Shown one piece after another: positions 2,077 through 58,134 of a stretch of 64,000 nt of DNA. The notes under the pieces were generated by a model. It did no database searches, was not told the origin of the DNA, and saw only the letters and a list, made by a program, of their open reading frames with translations. A program made the position numbers and the translations under genes. How positions within the stretch are numbered: position 1 is the stretch's first letter; the number at the start of each line of letters is the position of its first letter. This DNA comes from Pocillopora damicornis (Eukaryota): NCBI RefSeq assembly GCF_003704095.1, contig NW_020846901.1, positions 62,001-126,000 on the forward strand, in the 5' to 3' direction.

Positions 2077-2922
2077 TTAGTTGCATTTCTGCTTCTTCCG
2101 CATTTTGTCTACTTTTTGTAAGCTCTTCTCATCAATGTCTCTGCAAATCTGTCTCTCTCCAATGCAGAATATATGTAGACGTTCTAGATTTCTTGGAAGT
2201 AAAGTTAATTTGTTGTCCCTGAGGTCCACATGACTCAAATTTGGCAATTTTTTTACTGTGTTATTGTGCAAAGACTGAATCATGTTTGAGCGCAGAATCA
2301 GATTCTCTAATTTATGAAGTCCACTCAGACCTTCAGGAAATTTGCTAAATTGATTTTCAGCAAGATCGAGCTGGATCAAGTTTAAGAGGCAATGAAAGTC
2401 ACTAGGCAGAGACGAAAGTTGATTTTTTGCTAAACTTAGCCACTTCAGAGATTTTAAAGCTGAAAATCCATTGGGCAAAGCCTTGATATTGTTACATCCT
2501 GCACCAAGTTTCTCCAAGTTCACAAGTTTGCAAATCTCAGGTGGTAATGCCATCAGCTGGATGTTGACAATCCAAAGTTCTTGGAGAAAGGTTAACTCCC
2601 CTATTTCTGAAGGTAAGAATCCTAGATTGTTGTGACTCAAACACAAAACTCGCAAGTTCGATAGCTGCCGAAATCCCGTAGGTATTAGTGTTAACTGATT
2701 ATGATCAAGTGCTAAGACTTGAAGATTTTTTAGTGAGACAAGTTCCATCGGAGGCATAATAATCTTGTTGTTATTCAACAATAACGTTTTCACTTTGACA
2801 AGTTCCTTTAAAGAATCGGGAAGTACGGTCAGATCTCGATGACTGAGATTTAAAACCGTGCACTCAGAACTTATAGCAGTCAATAGTATTTTATCCACCT
2901 CCTTTTGAGCTGCGTGGTACAT
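2077..2922 (-). CDS. Intronless leucine-rich repeat protein, 281 aa
   Basis: About 9 tandem LxxLxLxxNxLxxLPxx repeats of the SHOC2/RSU1-like 23-residue type. Single ORF from ATG to TAA. Confidence 0.92.
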   Translation of the reverse strand: MYHAAQKEVDKILLTAISSECTVLNLSHRDLTVLPDSLKELVKVKTLLLNNNKIIMPPMELVSLKNLQVLALDHNQLTLIPTGFRQLSNLRVLCLSHNNLGFLPSEIGELTFLQELWIVNIQLMALPPEICKLVNLEKLGAGCNNIKALPNGFSALKSLKWLSLAKNQLSSLPSDFHCLLNLIQLDLAENQFSKFPEGLSGLHKLENLILRSNMIQSLHNNTVKKLPNLSHVDLRDNKLTLLPRNLERLHIFCIGERQICRDIDEKSLQKVDKMRKKQKCN

Positions 2923-28200: not shown

Positions 28201-29186
28201 TGACCTTGGCCGTAAAGGAATGGGTAACAGACTAAAATAAATGTAGAGTAACTATGTAACTATGAACATCGCATAATTTTAGCTGACACAGGAAGTTTTG
28301 TAAGCAACGAGCAACGAAGTACAGTGAGCTTTGAGAACAACCCGAATATAATTACTTCCTCTCAAGGCATAACAAACTCTGTAATACGTTTTCTGTTTCG
28401 ATTGCTCCAAGACTTGTTCGAAATCTGTCGGTTTGAAAGATAGGCTGAAGAGTTCCTGGTAGCCCTAGGGATATTTACTTCAACCTCTGAAAAGAAACGA
28501 AACAGCTTCATTCAGATGTTGAAGACCATAGTTCTGTATTCCTAATTACGATAAATTTTAAGAAAAGGCCGAAAACAGAGAGTAAATCAAGAGACTATAA
28601 ATAATCCAGTGAACACTGTCGATGCCAATCAAAACACTAATTTTTGTCTTGCTTTTTTCATCATTTTCTCAATATATAGATGCATCTTTTATGTATATTT
28701 TGTTTGCCGCGCGCTTTTAACGGGAGGCTCTTGCGCGGGAGTCTAGGTGACCAAACCCTACGTTTCAACACTACATTTAATTGATCAGTTTTAAGTTAGC
28801 AATCCTGTTAGCAATCAGTTAGTAATTACATCTTTGGTAAATGTAAGGCATCTTTCAGTGATACTTTGGTAGCGCCCGTCGTTCTAATAAATATTGTTTT
28901 GAATCAATTATTTGAACTTTTCGATTTCACCATTCAATATATATTTATACTAATTTTTTTTAGTATATTTTTGATTTCTGACTTCATATTTTACCATCTG
29001 GATATTTTGTCCATAGTTATGTCTTGAACAGTAATATGGGACAATTTCATAAAAGATAATTTTCTCCAACCCAACCCTTCATAAAATGCAGTCTCACTCT
29101 CAGAGTCCCTGTTACCCTTATTTAGTGCAACAGGTGCTAGTTGAGGTAATGAAAGGGAACAAAGACTCAGGAAACAAGAGTGTCCC

Positions 29187-32100
29187 TCAGGGCTCCACGC
29201 AAACTCTGTTGAACACTTGCTGTTTGGAGAGCAGCAAGGCTTGTTCAAAATCTGTGAGTTTGAAAGATGGGCTGAAGAGTTCTTCAAATGGATATTTATT
29301 ACATGTTCTGGACAGAAACGAAATAGCTTCATCCAGATGTTGTGGACCATAGTTGTGAATTCCTGATGATGATCAATGAAAAGAAAAAGGAAAATAGAGA
29401 GTGAGTCAAAAGGCCATTGATAAACAAGTAGACATCTCACTGTAAGTTCAGGCATCCTTTGATACTTACCTTTAATAGTGACACACTTTCTTATGATCTG
29501 TTCACCAGTGATATCTAAATTGGAATTTGGATGTACCATACCAGCAAGCACATATAAACCCCCAGTACGAAGGAGTCTTATTCCATCAGGTATCACTCCT
29601 GGGAATCCACAAACCTGTAAATAAATACACAACATCTCAGACTGCAATTTGATGAATTCTGAAAAACAATGCCTGGAATAATCCTCTATTATTTAAGACA
29701 ACTAACTACAGTCAATAAGTTACCAAATGGATAAAACCTCTACACCCTAACATCGGTATGCAAATTCTCCATACTAATCTTTAAACAATTCCTAAATAGG
29801 AGAACTTGTCAAACAATCAAGAGCTTCTTGAGTTTCTGATCATTTCCCTTATTCTCATGAACTTAATGTTTGATTTAGGGGTGAAAATGTTGGGAGAAAT
29901 TAGATACTTATCACTCTTAGGGGTTGGAGGGTTAGATTCCAAAAAGTGTAAACTGATATAAAATGCATAACTTTCAGTATGAAGTAATAAAAGTTCCTCA
30001 CCTCTATAACCACATCAACAGAGTTGTCACCAGGATCACTTGGAGGGCTCCCATCTATAAATTTGGAAATTATGTGGACTAGTAAGTCTCTCCTTATGTG
30101 AGTTTGTTGTTAACACTATGGAAGGTAAAATTTTAAATAAATGTAAATGTCAAGAATAAATCCAAAAAGGGATTGATATGATGAGAAATATCATGCTATA
30201 ACTGATTTATAATATACCTTTTGTTAATTAAATGGACTGCCCTTGGAAGGAGCTTAATCATCACAAAGCAACCAAATTATATCACATCACTTCATATACA
30301 CCTTTAACTTTGATCTAATGATTTTATCACACTTACATTGGATTTCCACAAGGAGAAATGTAAAAAAGCCTATCTTACCTGTTATGACAGGAATTCCACC
30401 AAACCTTTGAACTATTTCCAGTCTCTTGGGTTCAATATCAGAGCAGTAAACTTTCCTGAAGCCAGCTTCTTGAAGAAGCACACAGCCATAAATTCCTAAA
30501 AGGCCACACCCCTATAAAGTTAAAATTGAGCTGTACAGTCATCAAGTTGACACATTTTGAGGTTTAAAAGAAATTTTGAAATTTTTTTGAGAGTTTCAGA
30601 GCTGACGTTTCGAGTGTCAGCCCCTCCCTTGGAGCAAATGATGAAGGACTAACACTAAAAACATCTGCTTTTAAACTCTTAACAGTGGTCAATTTTGCAT
30701 TGCATGCCTGTCAAATTTCATAATTGCTTACCTGAATTAAGGCAACTGTATCACGATGAAGATTTTCTCCTGTAAGTCCAGACACAACATTAACCATTGT
30801 TGCTAATGCACAATTAATGGTAGCAGCCATATTATCTCTGACATGACCAGGAATTTTTGCAACATGTGTTCCACTGTGTATGATAATATGGGATGCATAA
30901 CAGCCATTAAGTTGTGATTCTTCTGTCATAATAGAGTGACCATACTATAAAAACAAATGAGAGCCCAGAGTGAATCTAATGCTTTACACCCTAACATCAA
31001 TATGCATTAATTCTCTATACTGTTCTTGATACAACTCCTAAGGTACTGACAGAGAGAATTTGTGTAACAATCAAGAGCTTCATTATTTGGTGATCATTTC
31101 CTTTATTCTTGTAACCTTAATGTTTGATTGTAAGGAGAAATTAGATGCTAGTCACCCTTTAACTCCCATGAGTGACCAAGACAGAATTTCTCCTTATAAT
31201 ATTAATACAATATCAAGCAGACAAGTGATGAGAATAAAGAAAAATATCCAAGAAGATCCAAGACCAAATTCTCCAAACTAACATCACAAGAACTGTAAGG
31301 GAGACTGTAAGGGAGACAGTAAGGAGAATTATCAATGAGATCTTGGGAGTTAAAGGATTAAGAGAAGAAAGAGCAAGATTTGTATTCTTTGGGGAATACT
31401 ACAATTGACTGAAAGCTGCTTTTTAAAAGACTCTATGGCCTCAAGTATTTAGTAGGCGTAGAATATAGTCCCTCACTGATTGCGTTTAATGGTCAGTGAC
31501 GTCAGGCTTCAGAGGAAAGGTTGGCATGTCTAGGAGGAAGAGAGGCTGAGAGAAAGAAACCAACAAATAAAAATTATTTAATAAATAACCTTTCACTGTT
31601 AGAAGCATCCAACATACAATTTCTCCTTTCAATATTTATACCTTGTTCAGTAAACAGTCGAATGTCAGATGTTGTCTTGATGTAGCATCAAATTCTCTCA
31701 AATCATTTGCAAGAAAATGATTGGCAGATGAATGGTAGAATTAACCCTTTAACTCCCTTATGTGACCAAGTCAGAATTTCTCCTTACAATATCAATACAA
31801 TATCAAGTGGACAAGCGGTGAAAATATAGAAAAATGTCAGTTTGGGAATTATGAGTTGATCCAATACCAAATTCTCCAAACTGACATCAAAAGAACTGTA
31901 TGGGAGAAGTAAAGAGAATTATTTATAAGATCTTGGGAGTTAAAGGGTTAATGATCACAACTGTCAAGTGTCTTTCTCAAGTGTGCCATGTAATGTCTCT
32001 AAACAAGAAATAACCTGAACCCTTTAACTCTCAAGAGTGATTGAAATGTAACTTCTCCCTATAATATCCATACATTATCCAGCAAAAGATAAAGAGAATT

Positions 32101-33701
32101 CTCAAACTTCTCAGGTACAGGTTGTTGTCTTCATCTAACACCAAATTCTCATAACTAAGTTACAGGTAAATGTGTAGCAGCCAGAGGGGAGAATTAACAA
32201 TCAGATCTTGGGAGTTAAAGGGTTAATTGTTTTATCCGAATTCCAGTTTGACATCCATTAGGTTCTGACATACTCACCAGGACCTAGCCCTCCTTCGGAT
32301 CCCAAATGCCCCCTTCCCACACTTTTCTTAAAAAAAAAAATTATCCCATTGTTACCTTGAACAAAGAAGTGCATTTCTGCTGAAGTCCTTCCCTGCAGTT
32401 TTCACATTTGTTGCAACAGTTGATGACATGAAATGTTATTCTGTCTCCTTTTTCAATGTCAGTATCTGGACGCAGATGATTGATTACTTCTACAACACCT
32501 TCATGTCCAAGAATGCTAAAATTTAATGACATCCCATGAGTAAATCTTCATCTTTAAAAAATAAATATATCTGGGAATTAAAATAGCATGGACTGACTTG
32601 AGGTGCTTGTTATGAGAGGAGTTCACCTGTATAGGTTTATATAATCTTAAAAGTATGATCTCATTGGGCTGGTTATTCAAACTAAATTTAGCTGTTGTCT
32701 AACAATGTCAGGGCCTAAACAATCCTCAATTTAGCAATTTTCTCCATAGACCAATTTGTTTCCCTTTCACTAGACCTTTTGTTAAAGAGAGTTGGTCAAT
32801 AGGACAGAAAAAAGAGAATAGAAAAACTGAGTGAGAGAGCCTGAGTGCAGAGGAAACCCAGATGAGTACATTTGCTTATTGATTGTTTTCCTGATCCAAA
32901 CACACAATAAAAATATAGGTCTGAAAATTAGGTGTAAATAATTCCTACACAAACATGTATGTTGACAGTCCTGCCTTTAATGAAAATCGAGACAGTGAAT
33001 TTGAGTTTTACTATTTTTCCTGCCTAGAAGTATGAAAAGAAATTTTCCTTTTTACCCTCTAAAATTGGATCTGTTAGGTGATGGGAAATGAAACATGCTC
33101 TGGTTTTTGTCCTCACAATGATTTGATCTTTGCTGAGGACCAGTCATTTGTAATGTAATGTATACCTAATTGACCACTCCCAAATGGGGCTTTTCAGGGC
33201 CAAAAAACATCCACAGAACCCTCCCTTTGAAAATTTGAATTTGAAGGCAATTTACAATAATTTGCACAGTTGCCCAATACTTGTGCTGGGTGTGCATGTT
33301 GGAATCTTAAGAGGTAAGATACCTAGGAGCCATTTTCTTTATAACTTCAATAGACATACGGAAAGAAAAAGCGCCTCTAAAGCCTTCACCCCTTCCCCTT
33401 CCCCTCCCCCCACAAAAAAATGCTCTTAAGGAATGTGGGGGTGGACAAACCCAAAGATCCATTTGTTCAATCAACAGTAACGTGCAATAAAATAGCATTT
33501 CAGGTTATACCTCGGCGTCTGCTCTTTTCTCTTTCCGCTAATTGTATGTAAATCCGATCCACATATTGTTGCCATTCGGAGCTTTCCTAGGATTTCACCA
33601 GGTTTCAGCTTTGGAATAGGAACTTCTTCATGAATCAAACATGGTTCAGCTTGGGTGCCTAGAAAAACAAGCCGGCGAGCTGTTTCGCTCATGTGTGACA
33701 T
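29187..33701 (-). CDS. Zinc-dependent medium-chain alcohol dehydrogenase resembling the phosphonate-catabolism-associated clade (TIGR03366-like), about 356 aa
   Basis: Exons 33701-33511, 32515-32356, 30944-30732, 30511-30379, 30054-30002, 29614-29470, 29362-29187 total 1071 nt in frame. Catalytic Zn motifs TICGSD/GHEG/INCA, structural Zn CNKCENC..QKC, Rossmann GCGLLG with Asp (NAD-type). Clade motifs KYGH, GIHNYGPQHL and YPFEEL. Confidence 0.9.
31741..31951. mobile_element. TTAA-flanked MITE of about 210 bp (piggyBac-like termini), subfamily 1
   Basis: TTAA-CCCTTTAACTCC...GGAGTTAAAGGG-TTAA perfect TIRs. Related copies at about 4953-5154, 8615-8825, 20713-20858, 31153-31361 and 48451-48663. 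Confidence 0.85.
32016..32226. mobile_element. TTAA-type MITE, subfamily 2
   Basis: Same TIRs with a different interior (gtaacttctccctataatatccatacatt). Copies at about 16939-17150, 43543-43750 and 63026-63240. Confidence 0.82.
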
Positions 33702-33975: not shown

Positions 33976-34407
33976 ATGGTAAGGCAAATAAGAAGAATTT
34001 TTCAGAATACCAAGCTGAAACCTAAAGCATCAGAGGTATTAACACAACATTTACGTCAAAGAGGACTGCCGAATTGGACTTCATATTTCGTCCGCTACAA
34101 GTCGGTGATGAATGACAACTTCGCAATGTCCCATTTTAACTGGCTCGTTGATGGACAAAACTACCATATTCTAAGAACAGGCTGTTTTCCTTTCATCAAA
34201 TACCACTGCTCAAAAAGACCTTGGCAGGATCTGAAGCTCGAGAACAATATCCTCACGTTATTGAAAATTTTGAATTTAGGAATTCCTACTTTGGCTTATG
34301 GAATAGTGGCTTTCTTTCTAATAAAACATGAGGAGACAGTGAAAACTGTCAATGGGGACGTTGAGATTTACTTTTTAATGGAAGAGGAAAAAGATGCCAT
34401 GTTTTGA
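33976..34407 (+). CDS. C15orf61-like (DUF4528) small protein, intronless, 143 aa
   Basis: [63 protein letters not shown] matches the family. Basic N-terminus. AATAAA at 34424. Confidence 0.9.
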
Positions 34408-35995: not shown

Positions 35996-38900
35996 ATGGA
36001 TCCTGAGGAAGTGAAAGTTGTTGGTAAGACATGGTTTCGCTGTTAAAACGTATCTCCAGTCATGGGCAATGTAAAAGATACTCACTTTTCTTTCGCAGTT
36101 TACGCAGCTCGAAATTTACAGCCAAGGAAAGGAGCAGGTACGTCGATGTGTCTTCCGTAATCAATGCGAGCCCTTTTCGCGAAGGTTTCCATGTTGTTAA
36201 TTTAATATCGTGCTGTAATCTTTCAGGTGTATGTAATGCATCGGTTATTTTTGGCATTGGCAAGCAAAAATATCGCACAGAGGCAGTGCGAGATAACGAT
36301 CCCACTTGGAATGAGGAAACTACAATGTGAGTGTAATGTTTCTTGTTTTTTTTCTTTAAAAATACGAATGTCGGGGGATTCATATCATCAACTTTGTGTT
36401 CATTTCTATTAAGGAGAAAATTATGATGGAATATTCGAAAAGTGGTCCTACAAATCAATAAAAACAGGAGCCATTAAGGTTATGGGCTCCTGATAAAAAG
36501 CAATACTTCTGTCTGAAATATAAGAACCGTCGTTTTTAATCGCGATTGAGTAGTCAAAATAAATAGTGCTAAAATAAATCGTGCTTTTCTTATGTAAATC
36601 AATAATGGAAGGTTTATGCTAGGCAAACAGTGCATTTTCACACCTTAACCAGTTTTGATCAAAGGGAAAGGAGTTACAAATTATAAATTTTTTTTGTAAA
36701 TGTAAGCTCTGCATTTCTAAGTAACTGGCTTATTTTCAGTTTAGTGATTTATCCTTGCTGCAGTGCTAAGCGAGAACTTCGTATTCATCAGGAACTAGAA
36801 TGGAGATTTATGGGACTGTATCTGCTTCTATTATCTATTCCTGTACTATTTGCGTTAATAAGAAACATCTGCCTTCAAATTTTGGTCTTTTAAGATTAGC
36901 GGACAGTGATTACGGATTTTTGTGATCCTTTGGAATTAATTATGGAGAGGATCGAGGATTCATTAGTAAAGCTGGATAGTAACATTCTCCAATTACTCCT
37001 AAGTTGAACTGGAGACGATTTTATTTCCAAATTTCCTCATAACAACTTGTGCTTGGGAAGATTCAATGACGTTCACCCCCCCCCCCCCCCCCCAAAAAAA
37101 ATACAAAAACAAAAACCAAAAAACAGTGGAAACCAAATTATTGACGCAACATATTTAAAATTTTGCAAGCAAGAAGGATACAAGAGCCACGAAACAATTA
37201 AAGCTAAAGAACACGTTGATCGCCATTGGGTGACGTTACTTTATGCAAAATAGTTTTAGTGTTGATTTGTTGGAAAGGAGCGAGAGCGGGGGAGAGGGAG
37301 GGGGGAGATCGGCAAAGTTAGCTCTTTGGTTTAGCTGTCGCTCCTAAAACATATCCAAAGAAACGCGCCTCAATTTAATCAAGCGTTAAAGATAAGCACA
37401 TCTTAGTTCTCCTCAGTTAGTTTATTTGCCAAATTAAATACAGTTTCTTTAAGTATATCCATATTTACTGACATCTAAGGTAAAAAAAAAAAACAGGAAA
37501 AAATTATCGAAGACAACACCATCTTTTCTGAAAACACGAATTGTATGTATATCTAGGAGATCATCTTTTTATTTTGTCTCTTCTCTCAGAAAAGTTTCCA
37601 AACCAGCTGCATTGATATTCACAGTGATGGATCGAGAAGACTCCCTTGGCACAGTCAGTTTGCCGCTTGCACAAATCCCCTCCGTGGCTCATCGTCGCCG
37701 ATGGATTCCGTTGACGAGAAAAAATTCCCAAGCTATGGGCGACTTGTGCATCGATTGTTGGGTTCTTTCCTTCAAGAAGGCAGGGGAGGGAAGTAAATGG
37801 AATTCCATAATACCTTTAAAGGGTCGCAAAGGAGGAGGCGGGCGAGATCGCTCCAAACGAAGAGCCTCGATTGAAGCTGCTTCTATTTCTAAGAATGGAT
37901 CAAGGTCGATCGAAAATTTATACTCCAAGCCTGAGCTTACAGTTGACCGTAATTTGGACGATACAAACCCCTTTAAGGCTACTGACTCTGGATTGTCAAG
38001 TCCCAGTCTGTCTCGTAATTCATCGTCCAGTGCCACAAATTTAGCGTCCCTTTCTTTGTTCAAACCGCGTCTCGCCCCCACCTTAGGTCAGGTGCTGTCC
38101 GCCAGTCGTGCTCCGGAGATTACAGGACTCTCTCCAAAATCTGGTCCTTCGTCTGGAGGCACACGGATCACAGTGCGCGGTTGCAACCTGGGCACCTCAA
38201 AAGAAGATATAGCATATATAACTGTCTGTGGTTGTGATCTGTATTCCACACTTGAATACCACAGTCCAGCCAAGCTTGTGGTTGTAACGAAAGCTTGGAA
38301 TGGCTCCGGACCTGTTGTGTTGCAGACTAAGTCTGGTGGACGTGGTACATCGACTCTCGATTTTAAATTTCAGGATAAAGCTTCAGGTGAATAGCTACAT
38401 AGGTAGCCATTGATTTGGCTTATAATTGTTATTGTTGTTGTTTTTGAAAACTTAAATATGGCAAGGGATCGGCACACGATACCATGAAACACGTTTTGTA
38501 CGAATGTACTGAAAATTCTTAAAATCCCTTTTACCAGGATACGCGCGCATAATAGGTGCCAGATGAAATCAGAAATTAAAACTTATTTTACTTCTCATGA
38601 CACCAATGCTAATGACAAAGACCTTAACTAGGACAGAGAAGTTAATTTCGCAGAAGTCACAACTTTGGCTTGTTCGTGGAAAACTCTCCAGGAGCTTATC
38701 AATATCAAAAGGAAACGTTTTCTTCTTTATTGCATTCTACGATCTCTTTAGTTACTTCGTTGGTTAGAGGAAGCTCTCTAAATTTCTTAGATTTTGCTGA
38801 ATCAGCGACTTTCTCCTTCGTGTGAATTGATATTTTTGACACCACAAAATGAGTTAAATTTAGTTTTACTTCTTTCGCATTGTGTGGACAAATCGTGCGA

Positions 38901-56782: not shown

Positions 56783-57490
56783 CTACATGAAAGTCATGGC
56801 TCGCTCTCGTCCCCGTATCTTAACCAGATTCCTGTCTGTAAATCCGTCCTTTATGTGACTTATACTCGCGCCTTTTTCGATTAGAAAGCGCGCGCAGTCA
56901 AATTCTCCTTCGTAAACCGCGGCATCCAGCGGCGAGGATCCTTCTTTGTCGCGAACTTCTAACTGCGCACCTTTTGTCACGAGGTACTGAAGACATTCAA
57001 AGCTCCCTGTGCTTGCAGCTCGGTGCAAGGCATACGACCCATCGACTCCTGGAGCATTAAGGTCGACTTTCGTACCTTCCACCACATTTTTTAAGGTATC
57101 AACATCATTGTAAGTCGCAGCCCATTGGAGTAATAGTTGTGGATCTAGCGACAAGCTTTGCTTTCTTCTCCTGGCCGACTTATCTTCTGGCTTCAGTTTT
57201 CCATCGTCTTTTTGCGCCGCCATTCTCTCTTCGCTGATTCTCCTGAACACACTGTTTCTTGTTGGAAATTTTAACGCAGTCTTTGTGGCAGAACACATTT
57301 CTATTCCAAGATGGTACAGATCAGCGCGTGTGTTCTTGCTTTCATCTGTTGACTTCCAAGATTGCACGCGAATATCTGGTGTCTCCGTGTCTTTTGAGCC
57401 CTCACGGGTTGATGTAGATAATGTTTTGGCTTCTAGAGTTTCATTTCCTGTAAGCGGATTTGTTTTGATGAAATTTTTGGCTGTGCACAT
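56783..57490 (-). CDS. Ankyrin-repeat protein with disordered N-terminus, single coding exon, about 235 aa
   Basis: About 3 ankyrin repeats (DGSYALHRAASTGSFECLQYLVTKGA; EGSSPLDAAVYEGEFDCARFLIEKGA). First ATG is at 57490, with an in-frame TGA upstream at 57544-57542. Confidence 0.82.
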   Translation of the reverse strand: MCTAKNFIKTNPLTGNETLEAKTLSTSTREGSKDTETPDIRVQSWKSTDESKNTRADLYHLGIEMCSATKTALKFPTRNSVFRRISEERMAAQKDDGKLKPEDKSARRRKQSLSLDPQLLLQWAATYNDVDTLKNVVEGTKVDLNAPGVDGSYALHRAASTGSFECLQYLVTKGAQLEVRDKEGSSPLDAAVYEGEFDCARFLIEKGASISHIKDGFTDRNLVKIRGRERAMTFM

Positions 57491-58134
57491 TTCGTTGGAT
57501 GCAGTTAAATGTTGCTCTAGTTTTGCCCGTTTCCACAAGTTTCACCTTCCAACGCCTAAAGGCAGTCCTTGACTAAAAAATTCCAATATTCTGCGTTGAT
57601 AAATCAGGTTTTAAAGACGTCATGGTTGTATTCAATTAAGAGCTTGTTTTCTTTCGCTATCTTTGATCATGGTTGACTTTAGACTAATTTAAAAATTCCT
57701 GCGGTCTTTCACAGGTCAGCGAACTTTCTGGCCCTGCTTAAAAGATCCTTTCCTTTCACAAATCCGTTGACCTCTTGTATATTTATTTTTGTTAAAGAAT
57801 TACTTAATAATTTCTTTTTTTTTCTTCAACAAACTTTCCGACTTTGTTTTCAATGGCTGGTTATAATTGCTTTTTTTGTCATGCCTTGGAGCGAAACATA
57901 TATATTATCTTTCAAAATCTGTCACATTGTTTGGAGCTCTTTCAATTTATTTGGATCTCCATTGTGCGATGCGTTTATCGTCAGCTATATACAATTTAAT
58001 TGGCTCGCAACCGTGTGAGATATTAGTTTAACAAACAAAGGAGAGTACGCGTCATGGTTTGTTTTGTAATTTTCGTCATTAAGGAGACTGAAGGCTATTT
58101 GTTCTTTCCCTATGACGTTGACGTGGATATTTCA

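Follow-up and report, generated by a model that had tools for sequence, protein, structure and literature searches.

PbfG of Cellulosimicrobium protaetiae (WP_154797266), reported in 2026, oxidises 2-hydroxyethylphosphonate (HEP) to phosphonoacetaldehyde (PnAA) with a kcat/KM of 88,500 per M per s (PMC13576164). It reduces PnAA more quickly, at 290,000 per M per s (PMC13576164, Table 1); the equilibrium lies toward HEP, and isethionate elicits trace activity, about four orders of magnitude weaker than HEP. The same account places zinc on Cys45, His66 and Cys166 and HEP at Ser47, Arg56, His124, Asn298 and, from the opposite subunit, Arg288, these contacts coming from an AlphaFold3 model and not from mutagenesis. 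A specific HEP pathway was thereby described for the first time, in bacteria only as far as the main text goes, from which the strings 'eukaryot', 'invertebrate', 'cnidaria' and 'metazoa' are absent. Here we describe an intact gene of the stony coral Pocillopora damicornis, on the minus strand of a window of 64,000 nucleotides (contig NW_020846901.1, positions 62,001 to 126,000, assembly GCF_003704095.1). We read its product, a two-zinc medium-chain dehydrogenase/reductase (MDR), as an orthologue of PbfG that likely interconverts HEP and PnAA and is probably the entry step for salvage of phosphorus from HEP, and we put the probability of this reading at roughly 0.55.

Two sets of described systems come close to the coral gene from other directions. 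The PnAA reductases PhpC, FomC and DhpG catalyse the identical reaction with NAD(H) (PMC13576164) and belong to the unrelated family PF00465, whereas the coral protein is of the PF00107/PF08240 type. Host-encoded phosphonate genes of corals, comprising the 2-aminoethylphosphonate (AEP) pathway and PhnW/PhnX, have been described already (PMC3640398; bioRxiv 10.64898/2026.05.06.723128), and the passages of those two sources on the subject contain no HEP step or alcohol dehydrogenase. The supplementary transfer list of the preprint may include the coral gene; novelty was judged from its passages and its section 7. No animal member of the family was found in the literature on TIGR03366, PbfG, HEP and animal phosphonate genes, PMC10590968 included, in a search covering mostly journals outside subscription. 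What would be new here is a eukaryotic member of a recently characterised kind of bacterial enzyme, that is, an extension of the family and not new chemistry.

Residues, family and ancestry

Like PbfG, the coral protein is a two-zinc MDR of family PF00107, has Cys, His and Cys at its catalytic site and keeps the modelled HEP contacts by spacing. C45, S47, R56, H66, H124, C166, R288 and N298 of PbfG correspond to C47, S49, R58, H68, H120, C162, R292 and N302 of the coral protein, a mapping taken from residue spacing in the actinobacterial relatives P0249 and P0333 (+2, +11, +21, +79, +121 and +252 or +253, with an Arg ten residues before the Asn) and not from direct alignment with the assayed sequence. 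All zinc ligands, catalytic (C47, H68, C162) and structural (C98, C101, C104, C112), are kept, and so are all five contacts (S49, R58, H120, N302, R292). In a 99-row alignment, where the taxon labels of rows without names are our guesses, the 58 bacterial-labelled rows keep R58 in 58 cases, S49 in 57, N302 in 57, H120 in 56 and R292 in 51, and the contact positions are kept in 29-34 of the 36 eukaryotic-labelled rows. Asp213 suggests, from general knowledge of MDR enzymes, a preference for NAD. Several phosphonate-binding residues are lost in the animal homologues P0133, P0139, P0144, P0153 and others (crinoid, tubeworm, ostracod, spider), which may have changed substrate.

Animal orthologues carry the database labels threonine, sorbitol or idonate dehydrogenase, the commonest automatic label being L-threonine 3-dehydrogenase. 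The Escherichia coli enzyme of that name (Tdh) shares the MDR fold; unlike the coral protein, it has neither the position of the third Cys ligand nor the S/R/H/R/N set, keeping none of the five HEP contacts, while a haloarchaeal MDR keeps two (S49 and R292). The coral protein is 25% identical to Tdh and 43% identical to proteins from two of the organisms in Table S2 of PMC13576164. For family scoring we relied on P0001, a stored relative of 356 residues that matches the coral protein at 88.2% identity from residue 1 to residue 356 of each. It has the domains PF08240 and PF00107 and no PF00465 match, and scores 104.8 bits for TIGR00692 (cut-off 458.35) and 111.3 bits for NF003808 (cut-off 380), the threonine dehydrogenase families. 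TIGR02818 gives just 13-19 bits on exons 1-2, and a whitefly ketose reductase is 22% identical. The predicted model of P0001 (mean confidence, pLDDT, 93.3) has the MDR fold, with a template-modelling (TM) score of 0.90 to 1vj0; this was also the best entry in the PDB, at 26-27% identity, where no close relative was found, and an Atlas search returned generic ADH clusters only.

TIGR03366 (HpnZ_proposed) is the top NCBIfam family for each of the six exons scanned, exon 5 being too short, and for full-length orthologues. Its cut-off of 328.1 bits is passed by none of 15 close homologues scanned. Among proteins of organisms listed as carriers of PbfG, those of Brevifollis (307.3 bits) and Verrucomicrobium (312.0) fall below it and those of Chondrinema (359.6) and Pseudonocardia (396) above; the biological family is wider than the cut-off allows. 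The Chondrinema protein was tied to Table S2 of PMC13576164 by accession and the other three by organism name, with the phnA/phnY context as an additional match for Brevifollis and Verrucomicrobium.

Homologues were surveyed among the 120 best of 1555 matches, and a lookup by name covered 30 of 150 representatives. The earlier note on this DNA had stressed cnidarians, an emphasis that has to be corrected: named homologues come from ten animal phyla (sponges, cnidarians, echinoderms, hemichordates, chordates in the form of amphioxus and tunicates, brachiopods, annelids, a chiton, rotifers with an acanthocephalan, and arthropods) and from two named protists, Arcella and Diplonema, among the matches listed. 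The animals form one clade, with a Shimodaira-Hasegawa-like (SH-aLRT) support of 96 in a 54-row tree (18 animal rows) and 97/90 in a 43-row tree (17 animal rows). This clade is nested in a PbfG subclade (100/99) holding the Brevifollis and Verrucomicrobium proteins, so that the coral protein falls together with proteins of Table S2 organisms (PMC13576164), along with proteins from Verrucomicrobiota, Planctomycetota, Bacteroidota, Gemmatimonadota and Latescibacterota. In the 43-row tree the cnidarians cluster (93/85), as do echinoderms and rotifers, which fits vertical descent. Both trees were built without the long-branch sequences of Antedon, Ridgeia, Uloborus, Pomphorhynchus and Darwinula, and the 43-row tree also without Eurytemora. 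The long-branched proteins P0151 (Roseibacillus) and P0150 are placed within the animal clade, with support under 0.3, in a 99-row FastTree and outside it in the 54-row tree, and were left out of the 43-row tree. A single origin for the animals and the two protists is neither rejected nor shown (approximately unbiased test, p-AU 0.247).

The gene is thus likely to be old in animals and to have been present already before sponges, cnidarians and bilaterians diverged from one another. Because the animal clade nests within bacterial diversity, the trees point to an ancient bacterial transfer that preceded the animal radiation, and they single out no donor lineage. Two other MDRs of the host lie outside the PbfG clade in the 99-row tree. 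The dehydrogenase is single-copy in the host assembly as far as a TIGR03366 profile search shows; the other matches, on contig C4007, are distant MDRs at 65-75 bits and were set aside. Two of these distant genes stand in tandem (C4007, 295578-301793), with the phosphonopyruvate decarboxylase gene some 105 kb away, probably by coincidence.

Bacterial neighbourhoods and host partner genes

Bacterial relatives reach 49-52% identity among the matches listed. We counted neighbouring genes within 3.5 kb on each side for the best 80 of at least 573 confirmed bacterial loci, a non-independent sample that includes 30 from Verrucomicrobiota, 15 from Bacteroidota and 14 from Latescibacterota. At least one of phnA, phnY, phnW or TIGR03364 was present at 57 of the 80 loci, and at 42 of the 51 whose sequence extends 3.5 kb or more to either side; the individual counts were 48 for phnA, 32 for phnY, 20 for TIGR03364 and 8 for phnW, and the linkage recurs in six named phyla. 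The PhnY-PhnA route gives acetate, never acetaldehyde, so the bacterial dehydrogenase would act upstream of PnAA.

Two further features of these bacterial genes were observed. PbfG is fused to an HD-domain protein, at the C terminus in P0178 (a PhnZ-type domain, TIGR03276 over its cut-off) and, by inspection, at the N terminus in P0199. A DUF5690 gene occurs at 15 of the 80 loci (L088, 9117-10421, and 14 others; also L106, 2910-4187), ten of which show no known phn gene, and its product is a candidate phosphonate transporter.

In the coral there is no such operon. Exon-wise profile searches of the host genome recovered all four partner genes, in exon pieces: phosphoenolpyruvate (PEP) mutase (profile positions 22-270 of 284), phosphonopyruvate decarboxylase (1-360 of 360), AEP transaminase (2-355 of 355) and phosphonatase, PhnX (two pieces, the larger alone at 260.1 bits against a cut-off of 220). 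All lie on contigs other than that of the dehydrogenase, so the clustering with phnX or phnY-phnA by which bacterial members are recognised is not seen. The same searches gave just two weak matches for PhnA (35.8 and 29.8 bits) and two weak ones for TIGR03364. Unlike PbfG, then, the coral gene is eukaryotic, divided into seven exons and known from its sequence, and the genome around it also encodes PnAA synthesis; we class it as an orthologue with a probable PbfG-like function and not as a demonstrated PbfG.

A second host hydrolase of the haloacid dehalogenase (HAD) type, on contig C3714 (L092, 1414-2157, minus strand), scores 148 bits for TIGR03351 (cut-off 218.9) and is nearer to that family than to PhnX. 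TIGR03351, a PhnX-like family, adjoins pbfG in Chondrinema, and this HAD hydrolase is possibly a second PnAA hydrolase.

Substrate and direction of the reaction

HEP and PnAA are likely the substrate pair of the coral enzyme, to judge from its residues and relatives. The earlier note had proposed the conversion of HEP to PnAA, a reaction since shown for the bacterial family member PbfG (PMC13576164). By analogy with the bacterial enzyme, the catalytic zinc on C47, H68 and C162 would bind the HEP hydroxyl, S49, R58, H120 and N302, with R292 contributed by the partner subunit, would hold the phosphonate, and hydride would pass to NAD+. Net oxidation of HEP would require removal of PnAA, because the equilibrium favours HEP; the intron-split PhnX of the host could provide it by converting PnAA to acetaldehyde and phosphate. 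A further possible outlet for PnAA is AEP, by way of the AEP transaminase. Given that substrate, oxidation of HEP is the likelier direction in the animal. Salvage is the direction we favour, given that bacterial members of the family nearly always serve catabolism and that the host has PhnX.

Several observations weigh against this reading. Activity assays so far cover only PbfG, a distant actinobacterial member of the family, and no animal protein; its listed relative P0333 is just 33% identical to the coral protein. With P0001 as proxy, the score for TIGR03366 is 295.4 bits, under the cut-off (the next family reaches 111), and the coral protein is for this reason not filed under that family. 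A purpose-built profile gave the coral protein 332.7 bits, yet P0241, which lacks the signature residues, scored 324.5, so profile score alone fails to discriminate. Some animal homologues also lack signature residues, H120 being kept in 30 of the 36 eukaryotic-labelled rows. Among the bacteria, 23 of the 80 loci have no known phn gene, and phnX, the presumed partner in the animal, occurs at none of the 80. The literature searched yielded no report of HEP from corals. In two comparisons of public RNA-run contigs with the window, no splice junction of the productive gene model was displayed among the joints listed, those of the first comparison being joints in repeats, with 275 more beyond the list; the sole joint displayed in the second comparison (run X7) connects the donor at 30379 to an alternative intron-4 acceptor at 30115 and shifts the frame. 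Finally, PbfG is faster in reducing PnAA than in oxidising HEP, and the host makes PnAA, which favours a biosynthetic role.

As to the family, the earlier note had assigned the gene to the TIGR03366 clade and had named a sub-cut-off score, combined with grouping among ordinary animal dehydrogenases, as the outcome that would tell against it. The best-family match and the tree position inside PbfG uphold the assignment and the score does not; in trees that comprised no SORD or ADH5 sequence, the grouping is within PbfG.

The biosynthetic role is the main alternative, a serious one though less likely. The enzyme would be a PnAA reductase making HEP from the PnAA that PEP mutase and the decarboxylase supply; the HEP would be destined for glycans or lipids, or its synthesis would serve as an outlet for surplus reactive aldehyde. 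Two Actinoplanes pbfG genes do sit in putative biosynthetic clusters (PMC13576164, Fig. S2 legend), and the kinetics and equilibrium of PbfG run in this direction. The host encodes pepM and ppd. Neither family is among the 25 neighbour families scanned across the 80 bacterial loci. Cytosolic NAD pools, moreover, are mostly oxidised, and the lack of reports of HEP in corals counts against synthesis too. A separate PhpC-like reductase is not evident in the host, where PF00465 has one match, a single 42-bit stretch with nothing marking it as PhpC, no test having been aimed at that.

We regard as unlikely a second alternative, in which the animal enzyme now acts on a different small anionic alcohol, such as isethionate or another hydroxy-phosphonate, and its link to phosphonates is merely ancestral. 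The identity of about 50% to bacterial members allows such a change and the binding residues are altered in some animal homologues, but the coral protein retains all five modelled contacts and the host has a complete PnAA network. The isethionate activity of PbfG, trace as it is, can be cited on either side, since its efficiency falls short of that with HEP by four orders of magnitude (PMC13576164).

The coral phosphonate network would gain a fifth gene, with a bearing on phosphorus recycling on nutrient-poor reefs. As much as 20% of the phosphorus that marine dissolved organic matter of high molecular weight contains is reportedly present as HEP and methylphosphonate together (PMC9381506). 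Invertebrates that carry the gene likely process HEP themselves, and an orthologue with an intact binding site in ten phyla offers a single-enzyme handle on whether animals consume or make it. It is conceivable, if doubtful, that corals and other invertebrates bearing pepM and ppd make HEP with an enzyme handed down from the earliest animals; if so, animals would be an unrecognised source of a main phosphonate of marine dissolved organic matter.

An intact host gene and its surroundings

The gene comprises seven exons and six GT-AG introns with an open reading frame of 1071 nt, encoding 356 amino acids and a stop. Splicing and the alignment with P0001 confirm the intact seven-exon MDR enzyme with all zinc ligands that had been proposed. 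The short exon 5 was preferred over an in-frame alternative of 77 nt because P0001 aligns at equal length. The alternative acceptors for this exon were rejected: those at 30115, 30092 and 30089 each break the frame, and that at 30078, which gives the 77-nt form, keeps it (364 aa) but inserts 8 residues missing from P0001. Named coral relatives are 71.6% (Stylophora) and 68.3% (Montipora) identical, and the positions of introns 2 and 3 are the exact joints of annotated exon-skipped isoforms in Montipora and Acropora.

Features of the dehydrogenase locus, in window positions
Feature	Positions	Strand	Remarks
Exon 1	33511..33701	-	start codon; catalytic Zn Cys47, Ser49, Arg58; best NCBIfam match TIGR03366 1-34
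Exon 2	32356..32515	-	GHE motif (His68); structural Zn Cys98/101/104/112
Exon 3	30732..30944	-	His120 (YGH); third catalytic Zn ligand Cys162
Exon 4	30379..30511	-	Rossmann glycine-rich motif; Asp213/Arg218 (probable preference for NAD)
Exon 5	30002..30054	-	53 nt; length backed by equal-length P0001 alignment
Exon 6	29470..29614	-	Arg292, equivalent to cross-subunit Arg288 of PbfG
Exon 7	29187..29362	-	HNY motif (Asn302); stop codon
Three repeats of ~210 bp like miniature inverted-repeat transposable elements (MITEs)	31154-31361, 31740-31952, 32019-32228		intron 2; terminal inverted repeats
DUF4528 gene, intronless	33976..34407	+	PF15031, 217.8 bits; head-to-head with dehydrogenase
Decayed copy of exon 7 and end of upstream intron	28373..28610	-	75% nucleotide identity over 238 nt

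Four public RNA runs entered each comparison of repeat depth and of position 30118. All four differ from the window at 30118, which adjoins the alternative acceptor at 30115, and 11 of the 15 exonic differences between the window and the public runs are synonymous. A contig of run X7 stops exactly at 33511, the border of exon 1, a weak hint of splicing. Introns and intergenic DNA are covered at similar depth, so the contigs are uninformative on expression level; over the intron-2 repeats the summed contig depth is 10^3-10^5 in the four runs.

That the gene might be bacterial contamination, a recent coral-specific transfer or in decay is very improbable, and the first two are refuted: the bacterial relatives at 49-52% identity, the decayed exon-7 copy downstream and the frameshifting RNA joint are outweighed by the six GT-AG introns, the repeats of the host and the animal gene lying head-to-head, which exclude contamination, by two intron positions in common with Montipora and Acropora, and by the single clade formed by orthologues of ten animal phyla. 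The earlier argument that introns with MITEs speak for a host gene holds, as the inverted-repeat elements of intron 2 have further copies elsewhere in the window.

The decayed copy of exon 7 has two in-frame stops and is the remnant of a partial tandem duplication. On the other side, the start codons of the dehydrogenase and the DUF4528 gene, which we take to be C15orf61-like, are 274 bp apart, and the two possibly share a bidirectional promoter. Other long open frames in the window lie at 2080-2922 (-), 23650-25074 (-), 37453-38391 (+) and 56786-57541 (-); by inspection, one of them is presumably leucine-rich-repeat-like and one La-motif-like.

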